From: an uncultured Candidatus Saccharibacteria bacterium
Lineage (GTDB): Bacteria > Patescibacteriota > UBA1384 > 2-12-FULL-50-11
Length of the DNA stretch: 62,124 nt
NCBI GenBank assembly: GCA_964599405.1
Contig: CAZRED010000003.1
Coordinates: forward strand, 1 to 62,124
Direction of reading: 5' to 3'
Positions 3,900 through 58,564 of this stretch are shown one piece after another. The notes under the pieces were generated by a model. It did not search any database. It was not told where the DNA came from and worked only from the letters and a program-made list of their open reading frames with translations. Positions within the stretch are counted from its first letter, which is position 1; each line of letters opens with the position of its first letter. The translations under genes and the position numbers were made by a program.

Positions 3900-4998
3900 A
3901 CTACGCCGAAAGATTGATCCGTTAATACCGACGATTGGAATTGGATTATCAATAATTGGACTGGTAATGATCCTGTCAGCTTCCCAAATTGCCGCGGCTG
4001 ACAAATTCGGCGACCCCTACCATTTCTTTGTCCGCCAACTAGTTTCTTGGGTCATTGGGATGGCGGCGTTTTTTTACTTCAGTAAGGTTCCGCTGGAGAA
4101 ACTGTTTCAGTGGCGCAACATCCTATTAGTGATAACACTCGTCAGTTTAGTAATGGTTTTCTTGCCATTTATTGGCGGTAAGGTTAACGGTGTTTATCGC
4201 TGGGTAGGGATTGGGCCGCTCACCTTTCAACCGTCGGAGTTTGCGAAACTATTTTTAATTATTTATTTTGCCGGACTATTTGCGGTTAAAGGACAGTTAA
4301 TTCAAAGTTTTGGCAAAGGTTTTTTGCCGTTTGCTATGGTCCTGGCGACGGTAACGTTGTTAATTGGACTAGGGAAAGATCTCGATACGTTGGTGGCGAT
4401 TGCAGCCACTAGTTTGGTAATGTTTTTTATTGCTAAATCGCGTTGGTGGCACGCCTTGCTAATTGTAGTGGTGGGGACGGCAGCGGTTGGGTCGTTAATA
4501 CTGTTTGAGCCTTATCGAGCTGAACGCCTAAATGTTTTTTTAGGCGACGATGTGGCGGCTCGGGATATTCGCGACACCGGCTACCATTCGCAGCAGGCGT
4601 TGATTGCCATTGGCAGCGGTGGGTTGTGGGGCTCCGGTTTTGGACAAGGCATCAGTAAATATAAATATCTTCCAGAGTCGTATACCGACTCGATCTTTGC
4701 GGTGATCGCCGAAGAACTGGGGTTTTTCCGATCCTCAATCATTCTTCTGGCCTTTCTGGTCTTGACTTGGCGAGGCTTTGTGGCGGCCAATTTAGCCAAC
4801 AGTAAATTTGCCCAAATCATCGCCGTTGGGGTTTCTAGCTTGATTATTATTCAGGCACTGATAAATATTGGAGGGATGCTCAATGTTATTCCACTTTCTG
4901 GTCTACCCTTACCGTTCATTAGTTACGGCGGCAGTGCCCTAATCGCCAGCATGGCCATGCTCGGACTGTTAACCAATATTTCTGGTGAGCAGCGATGA
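3880..4998 (+). CDS. ftsW: SEDS peptidoglycan polymerase FtsW
   Basis: FQPSEFAK, IGSGGLWGSG, LPESYTDSIFAVIAEELG, LPFISYGGS; lies between murD and murG; start moved to ATG 3880 (or 3886). Confidence 0.93.
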   Translation: MFMNSFKLRRKIDPLIPTIGIGLSIIGLVMILSASQIAAADKFGDPYHFFVRQLVSWVIGMAAFFYFSKVPLEKLFQWRNILLVITLVSLVMVFLPFIGGKVNGVYRWVGIGPLTFQPSEFAKLFLIIYFAGLFAVKGQLIQSFGKGFLPFAMVLATVTLLIGLGKDLDTLVAIAATSLVMFFIAKSRWWHALLIVVVGTAAVGSLILFEPYRAERLNVFLGDDVAARDIRDTGYHSQQALIAIGSGGLWGSGFGQGISKYKYLPESYTDSIFAVIAEELGFFRSSIILLAFLVLTWRGFVAANLANSKFAQIIAVGVSSLIIIQALINIGGMLNVIPLSGLPLPFISYGGSALIASMAMLGLLTNISGEQR

Positions 4999-10984: not shown

Positions 10985-12274
10985 ATGGCGAAACCAAAAA
11001 ATATGTTCGTTTGTCTGAACTGCGATCGGTCGTTTGCCCGTTGGGCTGGACGCTGTCCGAACTGCGGTGAGTGGAACACCTTAACCGAAGAAAAGACCGG
11101 AGAACGGAGCAGTGAGTCGCTACCGGCTGAATTGGTGATGGTGGCCGACCTACCAAAGCAGCGGGTGGAACGACTAATCACCGGCAACATTGAGTTCGAC
11201 CGAGTGCTGGGCGGTGATGATCCGGGGGTAGTGCGTGGTTCGGTTGTGCTATTGTCTGGTAATCCAGGGGTAGGTAAAAGCACTTTACTACTGCAAATTG
11301 CGGCTGCCTTAAAAAAGTCGCTGTATTTTTCGGCCGAGGAATCACTACAGCAGCTAACGATTCGTTTTCAACGGCTCGGTATAACTTCACCGACGCTGAA
11401 ATTAAGTACCGAGCGCGATACTAGCCGGATTATTGCCGCTATTCAAAAGGAAAAACCGGATTTTGTGGTAATTGATTCAGTCCAAACTATTTACGACGAC
11501 GGCATTGCCGGTACGCCGGGTTCGCTTATCCAAGTTAGGGAGAATACTTGGCGACTCCAGCAATTTGCTAAAACCACTGACACTGCCATTTTCTTGGTTG
11601 GCCATGTGACCAAAGAAGGGGTAGTGGCCGGTCCAAAAAGCCTTGAGCACTTAGTTGACGTGGTCTTGTTTTTGGAGGGCGAGAAACAGACTGGCTTGCG
11701 GCTACTGCGCGTTGACAAGAATCGCTACGGGCCAACCGATGAGGTGGGAATCTGGCAGTTGCTAAAAAGTGGTTTCCAACCGGTTGACGACCCAGGCAAA
11801 CTATTTGCGAGTCTTTTGGGCAGCGACGTACCAGGGAGGGCATTAACAGTGGCTCTAGAGGGCAGTCGGTCGTTTTTGGTCGAGATCCAAGCTCTTGTTT
11901 CGCGGACCAGCTACGGCTATCCAAAGCGTGCCGCCCAAGGAATTGACCTTAATCGCCTCAACGTCCTGATTGCCGTTTTGGAGAATCGCCTAGAGCTACC
12001 GCTTAGTCAATACGATATTTACATTAATGTGGTCGGTGGATTTACCGTTAAAGACCCAGGGATTGATGTGGCCGTTGCAGCAGCAATTATTTCGGGGCTG
12101 ACCAAGCGTCCACTGGCCGACAAACTAGTAGTTGTTGGCGAAATTGGGCTACTAGGGGAAATCCGCCCACCAGCCGATCAAGAAAAGCGCAAAAAAGAAA
12201 TTAGTCGGTTAAAGTATCAAGCAACCGGAAAGATTAACTCTCTTAGCCAACTGAAACAGCTATTTTCGAAGTAG
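10985..12274 (+). CDS. radA: DNA repair protein RadA/Sms
   Basis: N-terminal C4 zinc finger, GNPGVGKST, IDSVQT, KNRYG, Lon-like C-terminus. Confidence 0.96.
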   Translation: MAKPKNMFVCLNCDRSFARWAGRCPNCGEWNTLTEEKTGERSSESLPAELVMVADLPKQRVERLITGNIEFDRVLGGDDPGVVRGSVVLLSGNPGVGKSTLLLQIAAALKKSLYFSAEESLQQLTIRFQRLGITSPTLKLSTERDTSRIIAAIQKEKPDFVVIDSVQTIYDDGIAGTPGSLIQVRENTWRLQQFAKTTDTAIFLVGHVTKEGVVAGPKSLEHLVDVVLFLEGEKQTGLRLLRVDKNRYGPTDEVGIWQLLKSGFQPVDDPGKLFASLLGSDVPGRALTVALEGSRSFLVEIQALVSRTSYGYPKRAAQGIDLNRLNVLIAVLENRLELPLSQYDIYINVVGGFTVKDPGIDVAVAAAIISGLTKRPLADKLVVVGEIGLLGEIRPPADQEKRKKEISRLKYQATGKINSLSQLKQLFSK

Positions 12275-15115
12275 CTACGGCGCTGTCAGAATCCTGGTTT
12301 CACCGCTGGAAAGATTGCCGCTCGTGTCCATTGACCGGAAGACAAAACGGTAGGCGGTACCGCTAGTTAGCGAACTGATTGTCCGGGCTTGGACACCTTT
12401 AACGACGTCAATAGTTTGTTCCAGGTTGTTGTTGCTGTTCTTGTAAACGAAGATTCGTACCTTATCAAAGTCGCTATCAGTTGGGTCGTTCCAAGTAAAA
12501 CTAATTTGACCGCTGCCGGGAAAGCCTAGAAGTTGGTTTATGTTTGTTATATTGCCTGGGGGTGTCAGGTCTTTCTCAACTTTTATATTGATTTGAGTCG
12601 ATGCGGTAGCGCCATTGACGCTTGTTACTGTAGCCGAGAGTTTGTGTGTGCCATTGGAAAGCGTCCCTGCGTCGTGAGTGCTGCCATACGGCGCATCACC
12701 GTCAGTCACAATCAGGACGTTATCGAGGAAGAAGTCAACCTTACTGACTCCAGAGGGTGACGAAGCGTTGGCGCTGATAGTGAAAACACCGGAGACGGTG
12801 GCGTTATCGGCTGGAGAAGTAATGCTCACTTGTGGCGAGTTACCGCTGGCACTGCATTTTTCGGTGGGGGGTTTGTTGTCAAAGCCGTTTTGGGCTGCCC
12901 AGGCTCGGACCGGGTTCTCCCAGTTCGGATTGTCCGGCTTCTCCGAATGAACGTAAGTGAAGGTTCGCTCCTCGGCTAATTCGTCGGGGATTGATTCGTC
13001 AGCCAACAATCCGTTTTCCCGACAGACGCGAACTCTTTTGTGAACGTCGTCTTTTTCGGTTGGGACTTGCCAGCGAGCAAAAATGTCCGTAATTACTTCC
13101 GATCCGTCCACGGGCAGTTTGTTGGATAGTCGATCCACAGCCAAGTCTTGTATTCCCTCTGGTCTAACAAAAGTCTCTACCGGCATTTCCGCATGAGCCC
13201 GCTCCATATAACCATCCCAAATTGGGGCGGCAGCAGTGGAGCCGCCAATTCGGTTCATTGACGTATGGTCATTGTTGCCGGCCCAAACAGAAGTAACTAG
13301 CTGTGGCGTGTAGCCAATTGTCCAGGCATCTTTGAAGTCGTTAGTCGTACCAGTTTTGGTGGCAGCAACGCGATTAGCCAGAGTCAGGAAGCGCAGGCTA
13401 AAGTTAAAGACTGGCCGTTTAGCGTCAACGTCGGAGAGAATATTAGAAATTTGATAGGCGATTTGTGGGTCGAGCACCAGCCGGCCATCTTTCGGGTCAG
13501 TGTGATCGTAGAGAATTTTATCGCCGCTATCGGTAATTTTTAAGACCGGTGTGGTGGGCATTAAGATGCCGCCGTTGGCAAAGACGCCGTAGGCGGTGGC
13601 CATGTCTATCAGTCGGACTTCGCCGCCGCCGAGTGCCAACGATAGCCCATAGCGATCTTTATCGGTAAGGGTGGTAATACCCAAGTCGTGTGCGGTCTTC
13701 AGGGCTTTATCAAGGCCAACTAAACCTAAGGTTTTAACAGCCGGAATGTTCAAAGAATTACCAATCGCTTGGCGAATGGTCAACGGTCCGCGAAAGGCTC
13801 CATCAAAGTTTTGGGGAATGTAGTTGCCAAAATCGGTCTTAAGGTCAAAGAGAACCGTCGCCGGGTTGTACTTTTCCTTGAAAGCCGTGGCGTAAATTAT
13901 CGGCTTAAACGACGATCCCGGCTGCCGGCTGGCGGTAGCGATGTTGTAGGCACCGAACTGTTCTTGAAAATAATCAACAGATCCGACCATCGCGATTACT
14001 TCGCCGCGTTTCGGGTCGAGCGAAACTAAGCCAGCGTTACTGGCGCCACCGCGTATGAGGTTTGGCACGGCCTTAGCTACTTCTTCTTCGGCGATTGTTT
14101 GTTTGGTAATGTCGAGCGTAGTTACCACGGTCAAACCGCCTTCCTCCACTTTCTTTTCCGCTAACTGGGCGTCGCCAAGCTCATCAGTGAAGTACTGAAC
14201 TAACCAATCTTTGACGTAAAGGACAAAGTGCGGGGCGGCGATTGATTCGTGTTTAGCCACCACCTTCAGTTCAGTTTCTTGGGCGGCCTTAGCTTGCTCA
14301 GCGGTAATGTAGCCCTGCTGGGCCATTCGCTCCAGTGCTAAATTGCGTCGAGCAACCAGTCGGTCGGTGTTAGGGCCGTATGGAGAGAGGGTAGTGGGGG
14401 CTTGCGGCAAGGCTGCTAGGGTGGCGGCTTCCGGCAAAGTTAGTTCGGCAGCGCTTTTGTTGAAGAACGATCGGGCGGCCGCTTCCACGCCGTAGTTGTT
14501 GCCGCCGTAGGGGATTTCGTTGAGATACATTACTAGTATTTCCTCTTTAGAAAAAAGAAATTCTAGCTCAACTGCCATCACCGCCTCTTTGGCTTTACGA
14601 ATTAAGGTTCGCTCACTAGTTAGTAAGGCGTTTTTAATAAATTGTTGAGTAATGGTGGAGCCGCCGCCACGTGATCCGCCAAACAGTACTGCCCGAGCCA
14701 CGCCGCTAAAATCCAATCCAAAATGTTTGTAGAAGTCTTTATCTTCCAGCGCCACGGTGGCATTTTTGACAACGTCAGGAATTTGTTCTTTCTCGATAGT
14801 AATCCGCTTTTTTTCGCCGGAAATGGTGTAGAGCGGATTCATATTGCGATCAAACAGTCGGGTGGAGCTGGCTGAAACCAGATTGCGTATTTTACCGGGT
14901 GTCGGCAAATCTTTCGCAAACCAAGCAAACATAAAAATCACAATTAACAGGAAAACCCCGGTACCCCATAGGGCAACCCGGCCAATTTTTTTCCATACAG
15001 TTTTAGCGGAGGGTTTTTTGCCGCCGAATAACCGGGCTTGCAGTTTTTTTAGGCCGACCGGGTTACGCCAAGGCAGACGGAACTTTGGCAGCCGAAACTG
15101 GAAGAGCTTCATCAT
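12275..15115 (-). CDS. class A penicillin-binding protein with C-terminal Ig-like and FN3-like domains
   Basis: EDKDF, GGSTITQQ transglycosylase motifs; SSFK, SLN, KTG transpeptidase motifs; PQVSITSPADNATVSG Ig-like repeat. Confidence 0.93.
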   Translation of the reverse strand: MMKLFQFRLPKFRLPWRNPVGLKKLQARLFGGKKPSAKTVWKKIGRVALWGTGVFLLIVIFMFAWFAKDLPTPGKIRNLVSASSTRLFDRNMNPLYTISGEKKRITIEKEQIPDVVKNATVALEDKDFYKHFGLDFSGVARAVLFGGSRGGGSTITQQFIKNALLTSERTLIRKAKEAVMAVELEFLFSKEEILVMYLNEIPYGGNNYGVEAAARSFFNKSAAELTLPEAATLAALPQAPTTLSPYGPNTDRLVARRNLALERMAQQGYITAEQAKAAQETELKVVAKHESIAAPHFVLYVKDWLVQYFTDELGDAQLAEKKVEEGGLTVVTTLDITKQTIAEEEVAKAVPNLIRGGASNAGLVSLDPKRGEVIAMVGSVDYFQEQFGAYNIATASRQPGSSFKPIIYATAFKEKYNPATVLFDLKTDFGNYIPQNFDGAFRGPLTIRQAIGNSLNIPAVKTLGLVGLDKALKTAHDLGITTLTDKDRYGLSLALGGGEVRLIDMATAYGVFANGGILMPTTPVLKITDSGDKILYDHTDPKDGRLVLDPQIAYQISNILSDVDAKRPVFNFSLRFLTLANRVAATKTGTTNDFKDAWTIGYTPQLVTSVWAGNNDHTSMNRIGGSTAAAPIWDGYMERAHAEMPVETFVRPEGIQDLAVDRLSNKLPVDGSEVITDIFARWQVPTEKDDVHKRVRVCRENGLLADESIPDELAEERTFTYVHSEKPDNPNWENPVRAWAAQNGFDNKPPTEKCSASGNSPQVSITSPADNATVSGVFTISANASSPSGVSKVDFFLDNVLIVTDGDAPYGSTHDAGTLSNGTHKLSATVTSVNGATASTQINIKVEKDLTPPGNITNINQLLGFPGSGQISFTWNDPTDSDFDKVRIFVYKNSNNNLEQTIDVVKGVQARTISSLTSGTAYRFVFRSMDTSGNLSSGETRILTAP

Positions 15116-31326: not shown

Positions 31327-31341
31327 ATTTGACTAGCTAGT

Positions 31342-31376
31342 CAAAAAGAAAACCCCGTTCTGGGGTTTTTCTTTTT
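31342..31376. terminator. bidirectional intrinsic terminator
   Basis: aaaaagaaaacccc-gttct-ggggtttttctttt. Confidence 0.85.
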
Positions 31377-45234: not shown

Positions 45235-45321
45235 ACCACATTCGGCGACGCGCATTCGTGCGCGTCGCCCCTTCCAACCCCTTCACAGCTTGACGTTGTG
45301 GGCGGATTGGACGGAACAACA

Positions 45322-45699
45322 ATGGCAACAAAGAAAGACATCAATGTCGTTATCGTCAGAAAAGACGCATCGCGAGACTCGGTGATTAAAGCGGCTCATA
45401 AGGTTTTTGGGCCTACCAACAGTAGGATTCAAAGGACAATTGAGACAGCCCTTGACCATGGAACGGTCGTTGCGCTGGTTACCCTGGAGCATTTCCAGCT
45501 TGTTGTCTACACGAATCAGCTCCGGTCTTACGAGATGGAAATTGAATCCCTACAATACGTCTATGTATGCGAACACCCATGGTACGAAGAACGATTAGGA
45601 GAGTTCGGCAAAGCCGAAATGGCCAATCCGGAGACTACGATCAGGGAAGCCGTTGCGCTACAGTTCCAGGCGCACATTACTAAACAACCTAGCGGGTGA
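45322..45699 (+). CDS. hypothetical protein
   Basis: ORF; ATG 45322 follows hairpin module. Confidence 0.65.
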   Translation: MATKKDINVVIVRKDASRDSVIKAAHKVFGPTNSRIQRTIETALDHGTVVALVTLEHFQLVVYTNQLRSYEMEIESLQYVYVCEHPWYEERLGEFGKAEMANPETTIREAVALQFQAHITKQPSG

Positions 45700-45764
45700 C
45701 GGACACTGTCCGTCACCCCTTCCAACCCCTTCACAACTTCGGTTGTGGGTGGATTGGAGAAGAA

Positions 45765-46103
45765 ATGAAGCTCTTACGATACGAAGCAACTGTTTTTGTT
45801 GCACTAAAAGCCAGCCTTCTGGACACCCAAGGCAAGTCTGTCGAAAGATGCTTGCAGCAGAGACTTGGCTTCAAGTCGGTAAAGGGGCTAAGAATTGGTA
45901 AGCGAATTACGTTTACACTGAAGGCTGGCAATCGAAAAAATGCCGAGGCTGCAGTGAAGAAGATGTGCACCAAACTCCTTATCAACCCGGTTATTGAAAC
46001 GTACGAGTTCTCAATCGGTAGAGGTGTTCGTGAAAAAGCAAAGAAAAAAACGAAAAAAGGGTCAAAACCCCGAAATCGAAAACGTTCACGGCGTCATGCG
46101 TAA
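45765..46103 (+). CDS. purS: PurS-like protein with basic C-terminal tail
   Basis: VFVALKASLLDTQGKSV, LRIGKRITF, MCTKLLINPVIETYE match PurS pattern. Confidence 0.82.
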   Translation: MKLLRYEATVFVALKASLLDTQGKSVERCLQQRLGFKSVKGLRIGKRITFTLKAGNRKNAEAAVKKMCTKLLINPVIETYEFSIGRGVREKAKKKTKKGSKPRNRKRSRRHA

Positions 46104-46465
46104 AACAGGACCGATGAAACATCGGCTTGCCAAGCGCTGCAAACAACGCGAAAATAACTTCGATCGGCGTCAAGCCGACGAGTAACGACTTTCCAGCGCA
46201 CTCTACTCCTCCGCGGGACCCCCGCCCTGAACAAGGATAATAGGCTGTCGAGACCTGCAAGGGTCGTAAAACGCTTCGGCGGACGACAGATCTGAAGGGC
46301 GACACGGCTACGGCCGTGCGGGCAAGTCGAGCCCGGCCTTGGTTGCTGCCATGCTGGCAAAACACAAAGAGCGCGCGATCCGAGGGAGGTGGCAGGGCAT
46401 TAACGCCCCCACCTCCCTCATTCCAACCCCTCGACAACTTCGGTTGTCGGTGGATTGGAGCGAAA

Positions 46466-46684
46466 ATGAGATCAGAAGTAATCCAATCAATGACCGTGTT
46501 TTTCTTTGCAATAGGATCGGTGATGCTTCTCTTGGCGCTTTACTATATAGCGTTCAAAGATAAGCGAGCCGCGCTCCTGATTGAAATTGGCCTTTTGGCT
46601 ATTGTGAGCGTCCTACTCATGATACTTGGCGTGTTATTCGCCGTTTTTGACAGGTTATCACCTGTCGTTCCTATCTCGCAGTGA
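46466..46684 (+). CDS. small two-TM membrane protein (72 aa)
   Basis: two hydrophobic helices; ATG 46466 follows hairpin module. Confidence 0.65.
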   Translation: MRSEVIQSMTVFFFAIGSVMLLLALYYIAFKDKRAALLIEIGLLAIVSVLLMILGVLFAVFDRLSPVVPISQ

Positions 46685-52578: not shown

Positions 52579-52733
52579 TATTGTTTATTCGTTCACTGGA
52601 GCATCCGGTGGGCGTCGAACAGTGGTTGAGCATAGGCCCGCGCATCGCGCGGGCCCTTTAATTACCCAAAGAAAAAGCCGCGCTGATGCGCGGCGATTGT
52701 TGGTCAAATGTCGGAAAAATTATCCAACACGGC

Positions 52734-53057
52734 CTAAGGTCTGGAGTTAACAGTTACATCTCCACCTTTCAGTTCGGCGGTGTGGCTGTGTTCGTAGTCT
52801 CCTGGGTGAAACTTGCTTCCAATAAGCGTCTCCATACGACCCCTTGCCATTTGAAAAGACGGATTGTCGTAGTACGGGCCAAGGACAATGTACGCCTTCA
52901 CCCGGCCATCTTTAACTTTGGACTCCACTTCGAGAATCTCCTTGTCGAACTTTCTCCCGAGTTTTTCGCGTAGTTGGGCGAGGAACCGGCGTTGTTGTCT
53001 TGCGGTAGTGACAATTGAGTCGAGACTGTTTATTTCATCTAATAGGTGCGATGGCAT
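52734..53057 (-). CDS. hypothetical protein inserted between rplA and rplJ
   Basis: AGGAGG RBS; own hairpin terminator near 52670-52697. Confidence 0.65.
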   Translation of the reverse strand: MPSHLLDEINSLDSIVTTARQQRRFLAQLREKLGRKFDKEILEVESKVKDGRVKAYIVLGPYYDNPSFQMARGRMETLIGSKFHPGDYEHSHTAELKGGDVTVNSRP

Positions 53058-53167
53058 GAAGGCCTCCTACTTGGCAATTCGCTACTTGGAATTATCACAG
53101 CATTTGTTGATTTGTCTATGGTCATTGACCATCTTCACTCTTTTTGGCATAATTACTTCGTTCCAAA

Positions 53168-53262: not shown

Positions 53263-53793
53263 ATGCCACTACTTAGAGCCCAAAAAGAAAGTTTAGTTGA
53301 AACCTTAGTGACCGATTTGAAAGAATCGCGCATCGCGCTGGTCGTTGCCTACACCCACTTGAATGCCAAAGCCAACCTTCAGTTGCGCGACAAAGCCTTT
53401 GAGCAAAGCGGCAAGCTGCGCATGCTCTCCAACAATCTGTTGAAGCTGATTTTAAAGAACCTTGGCCAAGACAAAGAGTTAGAGATCCCCGAGCGTCAGC
53501 TCGCCCTGGCCTACGGCTTCCAAGATGAAGTTACCGCTGCCAAACTGTTGGCTGACTTTGCCAAAGAAACCGAAGCGCTGGAAGTACTGGGCGGTTGGAT
53601 TGACGGTAAATTCTTCACTGCTGCTGATGTCAAAACCCTCGCTTCGCTGCCAAACAAAGAAACCCTGCAAGCCCAAGTTGTCGGCCGTTTGGCTGGCTTA
53701 ATCCAGGGTCTGGTTTACAACTTAAACTTCCCGCTGCAGCAATTTGCTTTTGTGGTGAAGGCAGTTGAGCAGAGTAAGGGAGAAAACAGTTAA
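53263..53793 (+). CDS. rplJ: 50S ribosomal protein uL10
   Basis: K..LVETL, LRDK, NNLLKL, LASLPNKETL. Confidence 0.93.
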   Translation: MPLLRAQKESLVETLVTDLKESRIALVVAYTHLNAKANLQLRDKAFEQSGKLRMLSNNLLKLILKNLGQDKELEIPERQLALAYGFQDEVTAAKLLADFAKETEALEVLGGWIDGKFFTAADVKTLASLPNKETLQAQVVGRLAGLIQGLVYNLNFPLQQFAFVVKAVEQSKGENS

Positions 53794-53798
53794 GTACA

Positions 53799-53822
53799 GG
53801 ATATGTGTTTAAACACATATCC
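53799..53822. repeat. perfect 24-bp palindrome (GTTTAAAC family copy 1)
   Basis: ggatatgtgtttaaacacatatcc. Confidence 0.9.
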
Positions 53823-53886
53823 GTCCAAAAAGAATATAAATTAGAAATAAGATATATAAGCATAATAAAGAAATAAAGGAGAAAAA

Positions 53887-54276
53887 ATGAGTGAAAAAGT
53901 AGACAAAATAATTGAACAGGTAGAGAAGTTGTCCGTGATGGAGTTGTCCGAGCTGGTTAAAGGCTTGGAAGAGAAATTTGGCGTATCGGCTATGCCGATG
54001 ATGGCCGCAGGTGCTGCTCCGGCAGCTGGTGGTGCTGCCGCTGGTGCGGAAGCCGCTGAAGAGAAGGCCGAGTACACCGTGGTCCTAGCCGCTTCCGGCG
54101 ACCAAAAGATTGCTGTGATTAAGGCCATCCGCGAAATTAAACCAGATCTAGGCTTGAAAGAAGCCAAAGACTTGGTTGACGCTGCTCCCAAAGAGCTCGG
54201 CACCATGAAGAAAGAAGACGCTGAAACCGCCAAAACCAAACTCGAAGAAGCCGGCGCTAAGGTTGAATTGAAGTAA
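53887..54276 (+). CDS. rplL: 50S ribosomal protein bL12
   Basis: [42 protein letters not shown]. Confidence 0.98.
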
Positions 54277-54291
54277 ACTTTTCCTTACCGG

Positions 54292-54330
54292 AAAACAAAA
54301 AACCCTGCCTTTGGTGGGGTTTTTTGTTTT
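54292..54330. terminator. bidirectional intrinsic terminator
   Basis: aaaacaaaaaaccc...ggggttttttgtttt. Confidence 0.85.
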
Positions 54331-54372
54331 GTATTTGACCCATTAGTATCTTAAGGGTATTTTCTGCATTGT

Positions 54373-54951
54373 ATGAGTAGCGCATCATTTCGTGAGAATG
54401 TTAATATTATCATTGGTTTTTTAGTTCTAGCATTTTCGGTATACGGTTACTCTGCAACCCAGCACGACAAGTTTGTTAATGATGAAATGCACAGAGAGGA
54501 GACTGCACTAAGGAACCAATTAAGCGGCTACTGGGTGTATAAACTTACTACGAAAACGTCGGATTTGGGAAGGTATATAAATATTGAATTGGGATTCCTT
54601 GTGACAATGGGAGTAGATGAAAATCTTAGCGTGGGTGGGGTGGCATATAAATGGAGAGAAAAGAACTCTGACGGAGAATTTATTTACACAAGGAGTAACA
54701 GGGCTAGAGCAGATATTACTGGTAGCATATTTGAAAATCAACGAATAGAGCTTAGATGGGTTATGGTCGACAAGAGATATGGTGAAAGTATAGTTATTGT
54801 TAACGGACAAGTTGGGGAAGGATATATTATTGGAACATTTGCTAGCGACGTTGCATTCCAGAAAGGGGATTTTTGCGCAAAGATTATTGGTGTGGGTATT
54901 TCTGAGGATTTAACTTATAGATTTTTGGATTGCTCAATACTACTCCCATGA
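54373..54951 (+). CDS. membrane-anchored beta-rich hypothetical protein
   Basis: one N-terminal TM then LSGYW and alternating beta strands; AT-rich DNA. Confidence 0.6.
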   Translation: MSSASFRENVNIIIGFLVLAFSVYGYSATQHDKFVNDEMHREETALRNQLSGYWVYKLTTKTSDLGRYINIELGFLVTMGVDENLSVGGVAYKWREKNSDGEFIYTRSNRARADITGSIFENQRIELRWVMVDKRYGESIVIVNGQVGEGYIIGTFASDVAFQKGDFCAKIIGVGISEDLTYRFLDCSILLP

Positions 54952-55412
54952 CCGATATACTTAAGATCTTTATCACCAGCGGCCTCACGATACTTGGCGG
55001 TTTACTTACTTACACTGCAGGGCAATCGTTCGTAAAATTTTTTATTGAGCCCTACTCTAAATATAGAGAATTAATTGGGGAAATTGATCACGGGTTAATT
55101 GTTTACGCCAACATTATCTTTAATGAATGTTTCATTGAATCCCCAGAACAGCTTAGGAGTGAGGCTATTTCCGTAAGAAGTAAAATCCGCGATTGGTCTG
55201 GTAGATTTTCTTCACTATATAACCAGCTGACACTAAGAGAGCGTCTGGTTATTGCTAAGTTAGTGCCCGATAAAAATGAGGCAAAAATTGTTGGACAGTC
55301 GCTGATTCGTTTATCGAACCTAGCTGGCAACGTGAACGGGGTGGGAAGTAATTTAGAAGTGATTATTTCTGACGAAGAAAAAGTAAGATTACTTCTGGGT
55401 ATACCAAAATAG
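54948..55412 (+). CDS. hypothetical membrane protein
   Basis: ATGA overlap with previous stop; N-terminal TM; AT-rich DNA. Confidence 0.65.
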   Translation: MTDILKIFITSGLTILGGLLTYTAGQSFVKFFIEPYSKYRELIGEIDHGLIVYANIIFNECFIESPEQLRSEAISVRSKIRDWSGRFSSLYNQLTLRERLVIAKLVPDKNEAKIVGQSLIRLSNLAGNVNGVGSNLEVIISDEEKVRLLLGIPK

Positions 55413-55489
55413 TTATTACTCTCTTATGAGACTTATTGTTGAAAACTGGGAAAAGTTTTACAAAACCGGCTCGAATTTTTGACGGGAGT

Positions 55490-55667
55490 AAAGAAAAGGC
55501 CCCGGCCGTGAAGACCGGGGCTTGTGTCTGACCCCATGATGATCCACTTCGCATTGGAGAGCGTCAGTAACGAAGCACCGTGCATTAACCTTAACCACCA
55601 GGTATTGGCACGGCCGGATCTAAAGACCCACTGACGTCAAGCCGGAGTCCTGACGGCTTTACGAAGC
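55490..55667 (-). ncRNA. candidate structured ncRNA with own promoter and terminator
   Basis: TTGACA (55702-55697)-17 bp-GAAAAT; three nested stems; GC hairpin + U-tract at 55523-55490; no convincing ORF. Confidence 0.5.
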
Positions 55668-55720
55668 AAATGTATTTTCTCTCCCCACAAACAACTTGTC
55701 AATAATAACCTCTTTGAACG

Positions 55721-55748
55721 GAAAGTATGTGTTTAAACACATACTTTC
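55721..55748. repeat. perfect 28-bp palindrome (GTTTAAAC family copy 2)
   Basis: gaaagtatgtgtttaaacacatactttc. Confidence 0.9.
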
Positions 55749-55800
55749 AGGTAAAGAAAAACGACTCGTCCATGGAGGACGAATTGTTGTGGTTCGTGGG

Positions 55801-56136
55801 TCATTCGGGCAGATGGTACTTGTTCGGGGCATTCGGATCGAGGAAAAGACGCTTACCAAGCTCTGTTGGTCGGTATTCCCAGCGTGTGTATTGCGCCTCG
55901 TCCGATCCTTTTTCTTCAAAAGACAACAGTCCGTGTTCCTCTGCAAATGTTGCGGCTTTGATCTGAAGCTCTTTCCTACGGTCATCGATGTAGATGTAAT
56001 CTGCCTTGCCGTCACGGAGAGCTTTGACAAAAGAGACTAAATAGTCGTGCTCCTTAGGGAACAGGGTCCGACATTGTTCCCAGAAGTTAGGGGTCTGAAT
56101 GGCCGGGAATCCGGTAGGTGCTAATTCTTTAGACAT
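55801..56136 (-). CDS. hypothetical protein
   Basis: TTGATA-17-TAAAAT promoter, GGAGG RBS, downstream terminator. Confidence 0.75.
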   Translation of the reverse strand: MSKELAPTGFPAIQTPNFWEQCRTLFPKEHDYLVSFVKALRDGKADYIYIDDRRKELQIKAATFAEEHGLLSFEEKGSDEAQYTRWEYRPTELGKRLFLDPNAPNKYHLPE

Positions 56137-56210
56137 ACAAAGTTACGCCTCCAAAGGGTCTGAGCCGATTTTATACAAACTTATGACTTATATCAATCGG
56201 TATTGAACGC

Positions 56211-56236
56211 AGAGTATGTGTTTAAACACATACTCT
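56211..56236. repeat. perfect 26-bp palindrome (GTTTAAAC family copy 3)
   Basis: agagtatgtgtttaaacacatactct. Confidence 0.9.
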
Positions 56237-56286
56237 CAGAAAAGAAACATGCCCGTCGAGGACGGGCATGTAAATGATAGCTGGGT

Positions 56287-56721
56287 TCAGGCAGGGGCTT
56301 TTGTGGCTTCGAGCCGTTGTTGGTAACTGTTGAAGAACTGTTTACCCCAACTGGTTACCTCTTCAACGGTTAGGCCAAGTTCAGTCGTTACTTCAATGGC
56401 CCAAACCACCGGAACGTAGATCACCAGCGTACTGCTAGCGTTGGTGCTGATGCGACCAGGCATTAAGAGCATGGCGTCGTACGTTGTTTTTTGCCAGGCG
56501 ATGGAGTAGGCACCGAGCGTTTCTGGGTCGTACAGTCTGGCCTGCTCTTTGATCCAGTCCGGAAATGCTCCGGCTACGCAGGCATCGTGAAGGGCGCGGT
56601 CGGGTATGGATTGGGCGTCGTATATTTTCACTGGTTCGCTCTTCTCCCACCCCAACACTAAAGCGGCGATTATCAGTCGTGACAGTTGGTACTGCCGATC
56701 GTCGAAACTAAGTTCTCGCAT
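56287..56721 (-). CDS. hypothetical protein
   Basis: TTTACA-16-TATAGT promoter, GAGG RBS, terminator catgcccgtc-gag-gacgggcatg. Confidence 0.75.
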   Translation of the reverse strand: MRELSFDDRQYQLSRLIIAALVLGWEKSEPVKIYDAQSIPDRALHDACVAGAFPDWIKEQARLYDPETLGAYSIAWQKTTYDAMLLMPGRISTNASSTLVIYVPVVWAIEVTTELGLTVEEVTSWGKQFFNSYQQRLEATKAPA

Positions 56722-56794
56722 TGTTTACCTCACTGAAAGGTTCGTGCCCAAACTATACCAGTGAAACGTAAATTGTAAACCAATTAGGGCGTCG

Positions 56795-56812
56795 TATGGG
56801 TTTAAACCCATA
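56795..56812. repeat. perfect 18-bp palindrome (GTTTAAAC family copy 4)
   Basis: tatgggtttaaacccata. Confidence 0.85.
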
Positions 56813-56879
56813 TTTTTAGATAAAGAAAAACGGCCCACGCGGGTGAGCCGTTCAAAGGGAATGGTGTCCACCGTGCCGC

Positions 56880-57752
56880 CTAGAGCTTTTGATTCGCTGC
56901 TTCGAGCTTGCGCTTTTCCGCATCCTTACGGGCAATGCGTTTTTGCTTCTCATTAGCAAGTTCATCCAAGTACCGGGTTAGTCGCCTGGCTTTGTGCGGC
57001 ACCGGAAGTTTCTGGGGGAGGGTCTTACCGGGAAGCGGCAAGGAATCGCTAGGAACAAAGTATGTTCCATACGCCCAGTCCCAAATTGGCAGAAAGAAAA
57101 ATCCGCCGATCGCCTGGTTAATCCTCATGTTTGCGTGATGCATCAAGTGGAAACCGTAAAGCTGGCGAATAAGATGGAACCTCTCCACCCACTTTTTCCA
57201 ATACCGCTCATAGCTTAGATGCATAGCGGCGTGATAGACCTCGTAGAGCACCAGGGAGAAGGTGACGGAGCAGTTACAGCTAATCAGCACTGGCGAACCA
57301 GGGAAAATTATCTGCAACGGCAAGAAGAAAATGACGGTAAAAATCAAGCAAAACAAACCCAATGCGTAGACTGGGAACGTTGCAGACTCGTTTTGATGCG
57401 AGTGCTCAATCTCGTATTCGTTCTTGATTGTTGTAACGTCGGTTAGGTCGTGGTGATGGGTGTGGGTGTCGCACTGCGACCGGAGCCACCGCCAAATCAC
57501 TGTATGGAGTAGGTAGCGGTGGTAGAACCACTCGAACTTGGAAAGAAACAGATGCCCCCCCAAGAACCAGCCAACGTAGTTGTACCAGGCGGAGTGAAAT
57601 TGAACGTCGTATGTGGTTATGCCGACGCCGACACCAGCCGATATGAAACCAGCCTGTGCTGCCAAGAACTGGATAAGGTAGAGAGTGAGGAACTTGCCGT
57701 GCTTAAACCGCGCATTCTCATCTCTGAGTGATAAGAGCTTTTCGATTGACAT
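56880..57752 (-). CDS. fatty acid hydroxylase / sterol desaturase family protein
   Basis: His boxes WFYHRYLLH, HTHHH, YEVYHAAMH, FHLMHH with TM pairs; ATG 57752 preferred. Confidence 0.82.
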   Translation of the reverse strand: MSIEKLLSLRDENARFKHGKFLTLYLIQFLAAQAGFISAGVGVGITTYDVQFHSAWYNYVGWFLGGHLFLSKFEWFYHRYLLHTVIWRWLRSQCDTHTHHHDLTDVTTIKNEYEIEHSHQNESATFPVYALGLFCLIFTVIFFLPLQIIFPGSPVLISCNCSVTFSLVLYEVYHAAMHLSYERYWKKWVERFHLIRQLYGFHLMHHANMRINQAIGGFFFLPIWDWAYGTYFVPSDSLPLPGKTLPQKLPVPHKARRLTRYLDELANEKQKRIARKDAEKRKLEAANQKL

Positions 57753-57860
57753 AGTGAACACCTGTAAATTAAGGTTCAGCCTAACGTAATTATACGTCTT
57801 TTTGATGAAAAAATAATTAAAAGAGAACGGCTCGCCGAGAGGGCGAGCCGCGAAAGGGGG

Positions 57861-58241
57861 TTAGTTGGGGCAGATGGGCGGAAAGTAGTTGACGTTTATC
57901 TCTTCGAAACGAATCAGCGTAATGCCGTCTGAGACGAAGATATCACATTCAAGCACATTAGACCCAGTTTTAGCAGCTATTTTCTGGTTGGCTAAGCAAG
58001 CGAAGTCCCTAAACCACGGATTTACTCCCCTGAACATCACCCGGTGTAGTACCCGAGCGTGTTCTGAATCAGGCAGAAAATCCAGAGTTGTTTGTCTGGC
58101 AAGAGCTTCGTAAGCAAGTTCGTGAAACTCTTCCGGTACAAGCTCTTCCCGGTAGATGTTCCTTGCTTCTTCGAAACTGATCGGAGCGTCGTTGGCGAAT
58201 TTGCCTTGTTGGCGTGACTCTTTGTTATCATCCTGTGACAA
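57861..58241 (-). CDS. hypothetical protein
   Basis: TATAAT and AGGAGG upstream of TTG start; downstream hairpin terminator. Confidence 0.7.
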   Translation of the reverse strand: MSQDDNKESRQQGKFANDAPISFEEARNIYREELVPEEFHELAYEALARQTTLDFLPDSEHARVLHRVMFRGVNPWFRDFACLANQKIAAKTGSNVLECDIFVSDGITLIRFEEINVNYFPPICPN

Positions 58242-58305
58242 TCTATATCCTCCTGTGAAAGTGCGGTTGGTATATTATACTACTCGCATATGACGAAACA
58301 ATGGC

Positions 58306-58548
58306 TTGTGGGACGGTTTTTTTGCTGGCAACGTGGGGGAAATGCATTACTGTGCCTATAGCTTCGCTGATTTGTTTAAAGCGGCCTTCGGCCGTCAGGC
58401 AACGGAAAGGGAAAATACCCAATTTGCCGCGCTAACACAAGATGAGCGCAACGAGCGAGTTAAAGAATTAGCTAAAATCGCTGATTGGCGAACGGAAAAC
58501 GTGACAACCGGCGAGGGAATGTTTGTGGCTTTCTGGCCGGGTTCGTAA
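58306..58548 (+). CDS. hypothetical protein
   Basis: ORF in front of phosphatase-tgt run; start uncertain. Confidence 0.5.
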   Translation: MWDGFFAGNVGEMHYCAYSFADLFKAAFGRQATERENTQFAALTQDERNERVKELAKIADWRTENVTTGEGMFVAFWPGS

Positions 58549-58564
58549 CTGGTAGAATTACTGC

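Follow-up and report, generated by a model that had tools for sequence, protein, structure and literature searches.

Whether the perfect palindromes that lie between and downstream of the ribosomal protein genes rplJ and rplL act as duplex DNA or as something else is the question raised by a 62,124-nt stretch of chromosome from an uncultured Candidatus Saccharibacteria bacterium (contig CAZRED010000003.1; the whole stretch is hereafter called the window). A preliminary description of positions 53799-56812 had presented four such palindromes as a loop-less family delimiting gene modules, and had taken their symmetry to favour a dimeric protein site, a cruciform or a site for module exchange. 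The present analysis leads to a different reading, which we hold tentatively, its chance being a little short of even: the palindromes would be copies of a short (~40 nt), lineage-specific and locally propagated stem-loop repeat, similar to the repetitive extragenic palindromic (REP) sequences of other bacteria.

Four Palindromes With a Common Core

Sequence reading and a palindrome census of the 62-kb window gave four perfect zero-loop palindromes of 24, 28, 26 and 18 bp (w1 to w4), all confined to 3 kb of the chromosome. Their common core, TATGKGTTTAAACMCATA, was matched four times in the window, against 0.09 matches expected from shuffles; this count was unchanged with up to three mismatches, and none of 100 shuffles reached four. 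The existence of four perfect palindromes with a common core is thus confirmed, and a chance origin is excluded. In the other 59 kb, motif and covariance-model scans found no further copy, strict or loose, and the only remaining perfect palindromes of at least 14 bp in the census were those at 4948 and 31328. An assembly artefact is also ruled out, because L001, a Logan assembly made independently from the source sample, has the same locus sequence and because orthologous hairpins occur in other samples. The four copies are as follows.

53799-53822: copy w1, 24-bp palindrome GGATATGTGTTTAAACACATATCC (core 53802-53819) in the rplJ-rplL spacer, with orthologous hairpins in the relatives L164, L165 and L240
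55714-55750: copy w2, 28-bp palindrome (55721-55748) with asymmetric flanks, TTGAACG (55714-55720) and AG; repeat family D2
56203-56239: copy w3, 26-bp palindrome (56211-56236) with the flank TTGAACG (56203-56209)
56794-56813: copy w4, 18-bp palindrome (56795-56812), TATGGGTTTAAACCCATA, with a G/C stem variant, as in relatives

Copies w2 and w3 are 92% identical over 37 nt, and w4 allows a G.T closing pair on the plus strand alone.

A Stem-Loop Unit

Three related genomes have an orthologue of the rplJ-rplL copy, which reads as follows.

L164: TATGGG TTCTAA CCCATA, TATGGGTTCTAACCCATA
L165: TATGGG CTTAAA CCCATA, TATGGGCTTAAACCCATA
L240: TATGGG TTATAT CCCATA, TATGGGTTATATCCCATA

The stem TATGGG/CCCATA is retained in all three, while the central 6 nt are not self-complementary, and the outer stems differ yet pair, as GGA/TCC in the window, CATC/GGTG in L164 and CACCG/TGGTG in L165. 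Because the relatives keep the stem around a varying centre that cannot pair with itself, the comparison shows that the unit is a stem-loop and that perfect zero-loop symmetry is a peculiarity of the window genome. The step from zero-loop symmetry to a role in duplex DNA is consequently not supported.

Structure tests were in line with a paired element. In an alignment of eight copies, a 12-pair helix has 83% of its cells paired and four pairs changed on both sides; register 0 was the best among seven slid registers, and the covariation score of 0.31, against 0.157 in shuffles, was reached in none of 500 shuffles, with the caveat that the eight copies are related and that the structure was derived from these same copies. 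Outer-flank pairing was equalled by shuffled flanks in 6 of 1000 cases for w2 and 12 of 1000 for w3, and was weakly above shuffles in w1, L165 and the rplJ-rplL copy of L164 (L164a). The earlier proposal that the symmetric flanks are under selection agrees with this, since pairing is maintained by compensated changes. As RNA, the hairpins have predicted free energies of -8 to -18 kcal/mol. Their G.T wobbles fall mainly on the plus strand (w4, L164a, the second L164 copy L164b, and the outer stem of L165), which is the sense strand of the rplJL mRNA and also the G-rich strand; by the usual skew rule, it would be the lagging-strand template.

Dispensability and Copying Within Genomes

In outgroups and more distant relatives the rplJ-rplL spacer measures 18-28 nt and the hairpin is absent. 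It is also absent from L241, which comes from the same metagenome as L165 and whose L10 and L12 are 97-98% identical to those of L165. Since so near a relative lacks it, the hairpin shows itself to be dispensable, an insertion-type polymorphism. The second copy of L164 (L164b, at 14328) reads TATGGG TTCAAG CCCATA and lies between two convergent terminators in the island downstream of rplL, beside genes that protein comparison found unrelated to any window gene. Its plus-strand flank, TTGAACGGGTCG, matches those of w2 (TTGAACGGAAAG) and w3 (TTGAACGCAGAG), and its 3' flank also fits YTYTY-AG. This match of flanks beside unrelated genes shows the island-type element to be ~40 nt long, asymmetric and conserved between genomes at non-orthologous places.

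Copies within one genome moreover have lineage-specific states in common. The T/A stem variant is common to w1, w2 and w3, while the orthologues of w1 carry G/C, and in both L164 copies the loop begins with TTC. Such variants imply intragenomic copying or concerted evolution. In ~204 kb of DNA (window and relatives), the covariance model R1 recovered the eight known copies and no other.

Placement Between Terminators and Promoters

The preliminary description had placed three copies between a terminator and the next promoter, and this was confirmed. On the minus strand, the order is gene, GC-rich terminator hairpin, T-tract, palindrome, 14-18 nt, -35/-10 promoter and next gene, a layout which holds for the 293-aa, 144-aa and 111-aa genes. 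The distances that it had given were also borne out: w2, w3 and w4 end 3-10 nt from minus-strand terminator T-tracts, the next -35 boxes (55702, 56196 and 56779) lie 18, 14 and 15 nt, respectively, from the palindrome starts, and w1 starts 6 nt past the rplJ stop codon. The features concerned are listed below.

53263-54276, plus strand: rplJ (53263-53793) and rplL (53887-54276), conserved block containing w1
55674-55702, minus strand: sigma-70-like promoter TTGACA-17-GAAAAT, downstream of w2, predicted driver of a ~170-nt transcript without open reading frame (ORF)
55764-55784, minus strand: intrinsic terminator of the 111-aa gene, with its T-tract ending 7 nt before the w2 core; repeat family D1
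56168-56196, minus strand: promoter TTGATA-17-TAAAAT of the 111-aa gene, downstream of w3
56247-56271, minus strand: intrinsic terminator of the 144-aa gene, directly upstream (minus sense) of w3
56752-56779, minus strand: promoter TTTACA-16-TATAGT of the 144-aa gene, downstream of w4
56828-56853, minus strand: intrinsic terminator of the 293-aa gene, directly upstream (minus sense) of w4

A plus-strand promoter built on TTGAAC and a terminator role were considered and dropped; a plus-strand T-run is found downstream of w4 only. The ~170-nt minus-strand unit (55495-55667; promoter 55702-55674, terminator 55521-55499) holds no plausible ORF, has a predicted fold of -69.6 kcal/mol (z = -2.8) and no Rfam match, and is a candidate small RNA (sRNA) of the island.

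A Proposed Local REP-Like Repeat

In this REP-like repeat, the conserved stem TATGKG(T)/(A)CMCATA would enclose a loop of 4-6 nt and be extended by outer base pairs that differ from copy to copy; the island copies have asymmetric flanks, which read TTGAACG-N5 (5') and YTYTY-AG (3') on the plus strand. A small subclade of Patescibacteria would have gained one copy in its rplJ-rplL spacer, and intragenomic copying may then have seeded further copies directly behind the minus-strand terminators of the adjacent flexible island. The element would act as a single-stranded hairpin, either as RNA where it is transcribed (rplJL mRNA) or as DNA on the exposed plus strand, and not as a duplex palindrome. 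From a mechanistic point of view, spread may have involved an enzyme of the HUH type, similar to the REP-associated tyrosine transposases (RAYTs), acting on single-stranded DNA, or gene conversion or template switching, which would also perfect the palindromes. A benefit at the RNA level can be envisaged, for example as a REP-like intercistronic or 3'-end RNA stabiliser.

REP sequences and bacterial interspersed mosaic elements, known in Enterobacteria and Pseudomonas with their RAYTs (Y1 HUH enzymes), are likewise short (20-40 nt) palindromic intergenic repeats, located between the genes of an operon or after 3' ends; the 18-28-bp palindromes or stem-loops studied here are all intergenic. The likeness extends to a conserved stem with lineage-specific flanks, to a presence that varies between close strains, and to a polarity given by a one-sided conserved flank. 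Several points nevertheless weigh against a REP-like repeat. Classical REPs are numerous and dispersed, whereas the window has four copies in 62 kb, all within 3 kb, and the clade DNA (window and relatives) has eight in 204 kb, all in the rplJ-rplL spacer or the adjacent island. The GTAG/GTGG-type 5' tetranucleotide is absent, the flanks being TTGAACG-N5 in the island copies and GTTAA-N3-9 in the rplJ copies, and three of the four window copies are perfect over 24-28 bp. Among the Pfam matches listed for the larger ORFs of the window (the first list giving 25 of 43 families, a scope that holds for all Pfam absences given here), a Y1/HUH or other transposase is missing, as is a RAYT, which the loci of the relatives do not show either; of this genome, the 62 kb of the window were covered. 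The outer stem is absent in w4 and L164b. The island copies come after good intrinsic terminators, not in place of them, so their transcription may be low, and a run search found no RNA sequencing run with the locus. Finally, the symmetric K/M change in the stem is equally expected for the operator of a homodimer.

A Hypervariable Island Beside rplL

The window is a segment of the core chromosome of a Patescibacteria (candidate phyla radiation, CPR) bacterium, with genes for Mur ligases, type IV pilus proteins, DprA, TopA, RecR, RF-1 and the ribosomal proteins L11, L1, L10 and L12. The best named relatives by L10 are metagenome-assembled genomes of Saccharimonadales and Berkelbacteria, and the locus was recovered from one permafrost metagenome DNA run only, as contigs. 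Relatives keep the order RF1-YbaB-Pth-L1-L10-L12-[island]-His_Phos_1-TGT-TrwB-like, in which the island of the window is the following.

54285-58549: hypervariable island from rplL to His_Phos_1, containing w2-w4, with 192-, 160-, 111-, 144-, 293-, 126- and 80-aa genes and one sRNA-like unit

The gene content of this island is wholly different in each relative compared. Against L164, the closest full relative (L10 88%) and the sole informative comparison for island breakpoints, nucleotide homology extends up to 54284 (rplL stop) and begins again at 58550 (His_Phos_1). Only the 293-aa and 80-aa proteins recur, in the islands of L166, L167 and L172, and their relative order is altered with respect to L166; the other island proteins are orphans. 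Searches of Pfam, PHROGs, PADLOC and NCBIfam gave no informative match for the island proteins, save TrhA_N_extend for the 293-aa protein. No homologue of the 144-aa protein was found. The 111-aa protein has three, the hairpin being absent beside all of them; its AlphaFold model is poor (pLDDT, the predicted local distance difference test, 54), and Foldseek and PDB sequence searches came back empty.

Other observations concern the island itself. The 293-aa protein (56880-57761, minus strand) matches NCBIfam TrhA_N_extend with E = 8e-43, below the curated cut-off, and has histidine boxes (HTHHHD, HAAMH and HLMHH) typical of membrane di-iron hydroxylases and desaturases; homologues occupy the same island in L166 and L172. 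There are two gene-turnover hot spots around L10/L12, at 54285-58549 (rplL/His_Phos_1) and 52579-53140 (rplA/rplJ), whose gene content differs in every relative; the islands of relatives include DUF402, Nuc_deoxyri_tr2 and one faint HEPN_RiboL-PSP match. In the L164 island, repeated promoter-like boxes (TCGACAT...) precede several genes (regions 11669-13017 and 11718-13835), and a 5' gene fragment, ATGCACGAAGAACCTCGAAAATGCGCGTGCGGCTGCGGCCGG (MHEEPRKCACGCGR), occurs in three copies, which suggests cassette shuffling by a different repeat.

Alternative Explanations

If the palindromes served module exchange, the hairpins would be structure-specific recombination sites (minimal attC-like, IMEX/Xer-like or invertase-like) at which promoter-gene-terminator cassettes are inserted, excised and shuffled. 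We regard this as unlikely, even though island content is completely different in every relative, the repeat separates three consecutive single-gene units with a constant polarity of the asymmetric flank, and the order of the 80-aa and 293-aa genes has changed with respect to L166. Module exchange had been proposed on the understanding that variable genes should break at the palindromes, but in the comparison with L164 the island breaks at the rplL stop and at the start of His_Phos_1 instead. The repeat is also missing at the junctions 126/293 aa and sRNA unit/160 aa and at seven of the eight L164 junctions, the hairpin-free relatives L166 and L167 have equally variable islands, and the 111-aa homologues elsewhere carry no hairpin, so that module exchange at the palindromes is not supported; the w1-w2 segment, moreover, contains the essential gene rplL. 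A search for recombinases had been suggested, and no recombinase family, integrase or invertase, is among the listed Pfam matches. As in integrons and clusters of attC sites lacking integron-integrases (CALIN), small orphan genes in one orientation are separated by palindromic sites in a hypervariable locus, and site sequence varies with pairing conserved. By contrast, attC sites measure 57-141 nt against 18-28 nt here, and their R''(RYYYAAC)-L''...L'-R'(GTTRRRY) boxes and extrahelical bases are lacking, the centre GTTTAAAC not parsing into boxes and no upstream sequence being complementary to GTTCAA; the genes here own their promoters and terminators, and the boundaries of the variable region are not at the sites. 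Concerning IntI, no Phage_integrase match is among the listed Pfam families, and the neighbours of the array are rplL and His_Phos_1/TGT. Parsing w2 as 11-6-11 (28 bp) and w3 as 12-2-12 (26 bp), with modules flanked by repeated sites, recalls Xer dif, pdif and the integrative mobile elements exploiting Xer (IMEX). Here, however, the dyad is perfect with a symmetric spacer, arms vary from 6 to 11 and palindromes from 18 to 28 bp in length, relatives do not conserve the centre, and cumulative GC skew rises monotonically through the locus with no switch, hence not a dif position; the earlier statement that the palindromes do not fit Xer dif agrees with this. Parsings as parS, dif, hix and attC were tried, and none fits beyond coincidences of length. 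The hairpins of IS200/IS605 and of palindrome-associated transposable elements share a short motif at a fixed distance, minus-strand GTTCAA ending 12 nt after the core in w2, w3 and L164b, and an apparent strand specificity, the wobble-compatible strand being G-rich and presumably the lagging-strand template. In IS608, TTAC lies 19 nt 5' of the left-end hairpin and TCAA 10 nt 3' of the right-end hairpin (PMC3201880). Unlike these elements, the locus has one hairpin per junction, no left-end/right-end pair and no tnpA/tnpB; the resemblance to IS608 ends may serve as a lead only. Slightly less probable still is the stronger version, in which the hairpins would be minimal structure-recognised sites of an undescribed integron- or HUH-like cassette-capture system of Patescibacteria, located beside rplJL and building the island one promoter-gene-terminator unit at a time.

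Two other functions, to each of which we also give a small probability, would leave mobility aside. The 18-bp dyad, with half-sites TATGKG/CMCATA and a 6-bp spacer, may be bound as an operator by a homodimeric transcription factor that would control three island promoters and possibly rplL. Its symmetry is perfect, in three copies a -35 box follows after 14-18 nt, and relatives conserve the half-sites and vary the spacer, as in HutC/GntR-type operators; the symmetric T/A versus G/C change in both half-sites is what altered monomer specificity would produce, and the centre GTTTAAAC also counts for an operator in that it would fit the HutC/GntR-type pattern GT-N-TA-N-AC. The dimeric-protein site proposed earlier would account for conserved half-sites and variable spacer, but it leaves the copy-specific, complementary and non-conserved outer flanks unexplained, as well as the promoter-less copies, L164b lying between two convergent terminators and the rplJ-rplL copies being followed by no recognisable promoter. 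In addition, the dyad centres (at about -58.5, -62.5 and -67.5) are not helically phased, no regulator was identified, with no helix-turn-helix (HTH) or other regulator family among the island proteins, and the 111-aa protein has a poor model and no structural match. A pure, non-mobile RNA element, by which the rplJL mRNA would be processed or stabilised and which island transcripts would have taken over in their 3' regions, would explain the orthologous position in a highly expressed operon of four genomes, with compensated stem changes, and the wobble pairs on the mRNA-sense strand of the rplJ-rplL copies. It is at odds with the absence of the hairpin from a strain 97-98% identical and with the island copies, which follow intrinsic terminators and in which the strand that allows wobble pairs is antisense to the neighbouring genes. 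For RNase III, stems of 10-14 bp are also short, and no Rfam match supports such an element: only tRNAs reach the gathering score in the window, and weak matches in 53700-57000 are at chance level. Far less credible than any of these, finally, are abutted terminal inverted repeats of modules resembling miniature inverted-repeat transposable elements, with TTAA/TA target duplication, or an artefact of assembly or chance. The central TTAA and the arms ACACATAC.../...GTATGTGT would suit tandem elements. This model was rejected, however, because it is the single palindromes that are symmetric, not the modules: the w3-w4 module would pair a T-type end with a G-type one, and outer flanks correspond on the two sides of a junction, not at the two ends of a module. 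In four genomes, moreover, the copy in the rplJ-rplL spacer is solitary. As for an artefact, two assemblies agree and shuffles exclude chance.

Wider Searches and Other Repeats

The REP-like repeat was also sought in public collections, where the exact 18-mer has 45 loci in genome_contigs, 106 in metagenome_contigs and 11 in viral_contigs, with 75 for a relaxed centre. These counts are near chance level, nearly all as single matches, and the 18-mer scans gave no wider family or viral link. The exact 18-mer TATGGGTTTAAACCCATA is also found within coding sequence of other CPR contigs (L020, L032, L076, L079, L146, L152, L028, L066 and others), where it encodes YGFKPI in a Tag-like 3-methyladenine glycosylase and in another conserved gene, a coding coincidence that inflates the CPR matches.

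A second intergenic repeat, CCCTTCCAACCC(C/A)TTCACAAC-TTCG-GTTGTGGGTGGATTGGAG, followed by 6-8 nt and then ATG, is present in the window and in L164.

Window: 45268-45325, 45716-45768 and 46425-46468
L164: 2225-2273, 2685-2733 and 3290-3338

It forms a UUCG-tetraloop hairpin leader between the preceding terminator and the ribosome-binding site of several tandem small plus-strand genes, one of which is PurS in L164. Window 45711-45759 and L164 2219-2267 are 96% identical, against ~75% for the surrounding genes; with no Rfam match, the repeat is a candidate cis-regulatory 5' leader. At 31328-31345, an unrelated 18-bp perfect palindrome, TTTGACTAGCTAGTCAAA, stands directly after the stop of a plus-strand gene and precedes AAGAAAAA and a bidirectional terminator rich in GC; this order of palindrome, A-tract and GC hairpin on the plus strand is that of the studied family. 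An inverted repeat at 2416-2470, with 14-bp arms, TAGTAGGTAAACAC-TT-GTGTTTACCTACTA, lies at the 3' end of the ORF 1403-2425. Together with a third half-site, TAGTAGGTAATCAC (2457-2470), it resembles an array of operators in front of the gene at 2544, and it contains the words GTGTTTA/TAAACAC of the studied core, but in everted order. In L165, a 22-bp perfect palindrome, CATATAAGATATATCTTATATG (2386-2407), overlaps the start codon of an HTH_3 (XRE-type) gene; it has no relation to the studied family and probably serves as an operator for autoregulation.

Significance

Such elements were not described for CPR/Patescibacteria in the literature library consulted, in which palindromic repeats of CPR bacteria, REP elements and uptake sequences were looked for. 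As judged from the genome, metagenome and viral collections, which gave no related family, the sequence family is new. Its kind, the short intergenic hairpin repeat, is known, and the local distribution and terminator-adjacent placement make it a variant. If the REP-like reading is true, CPR/Patescibacteria would possess a small REP-like repeat family that is unusually local and has clear signs of within-genome copying. Its practical value is modest, as a marker of strain variation and a candidate for studying accessory-gene shuffling in tiny genomes, and its importance would be much greater only if the hairpins prove to be the recombination sites of the hot spot. The repeat also marks the interval from rplL to His_Phos_1/TGT, in these reduced genomes, as a conserved gene-turnover hot spot.

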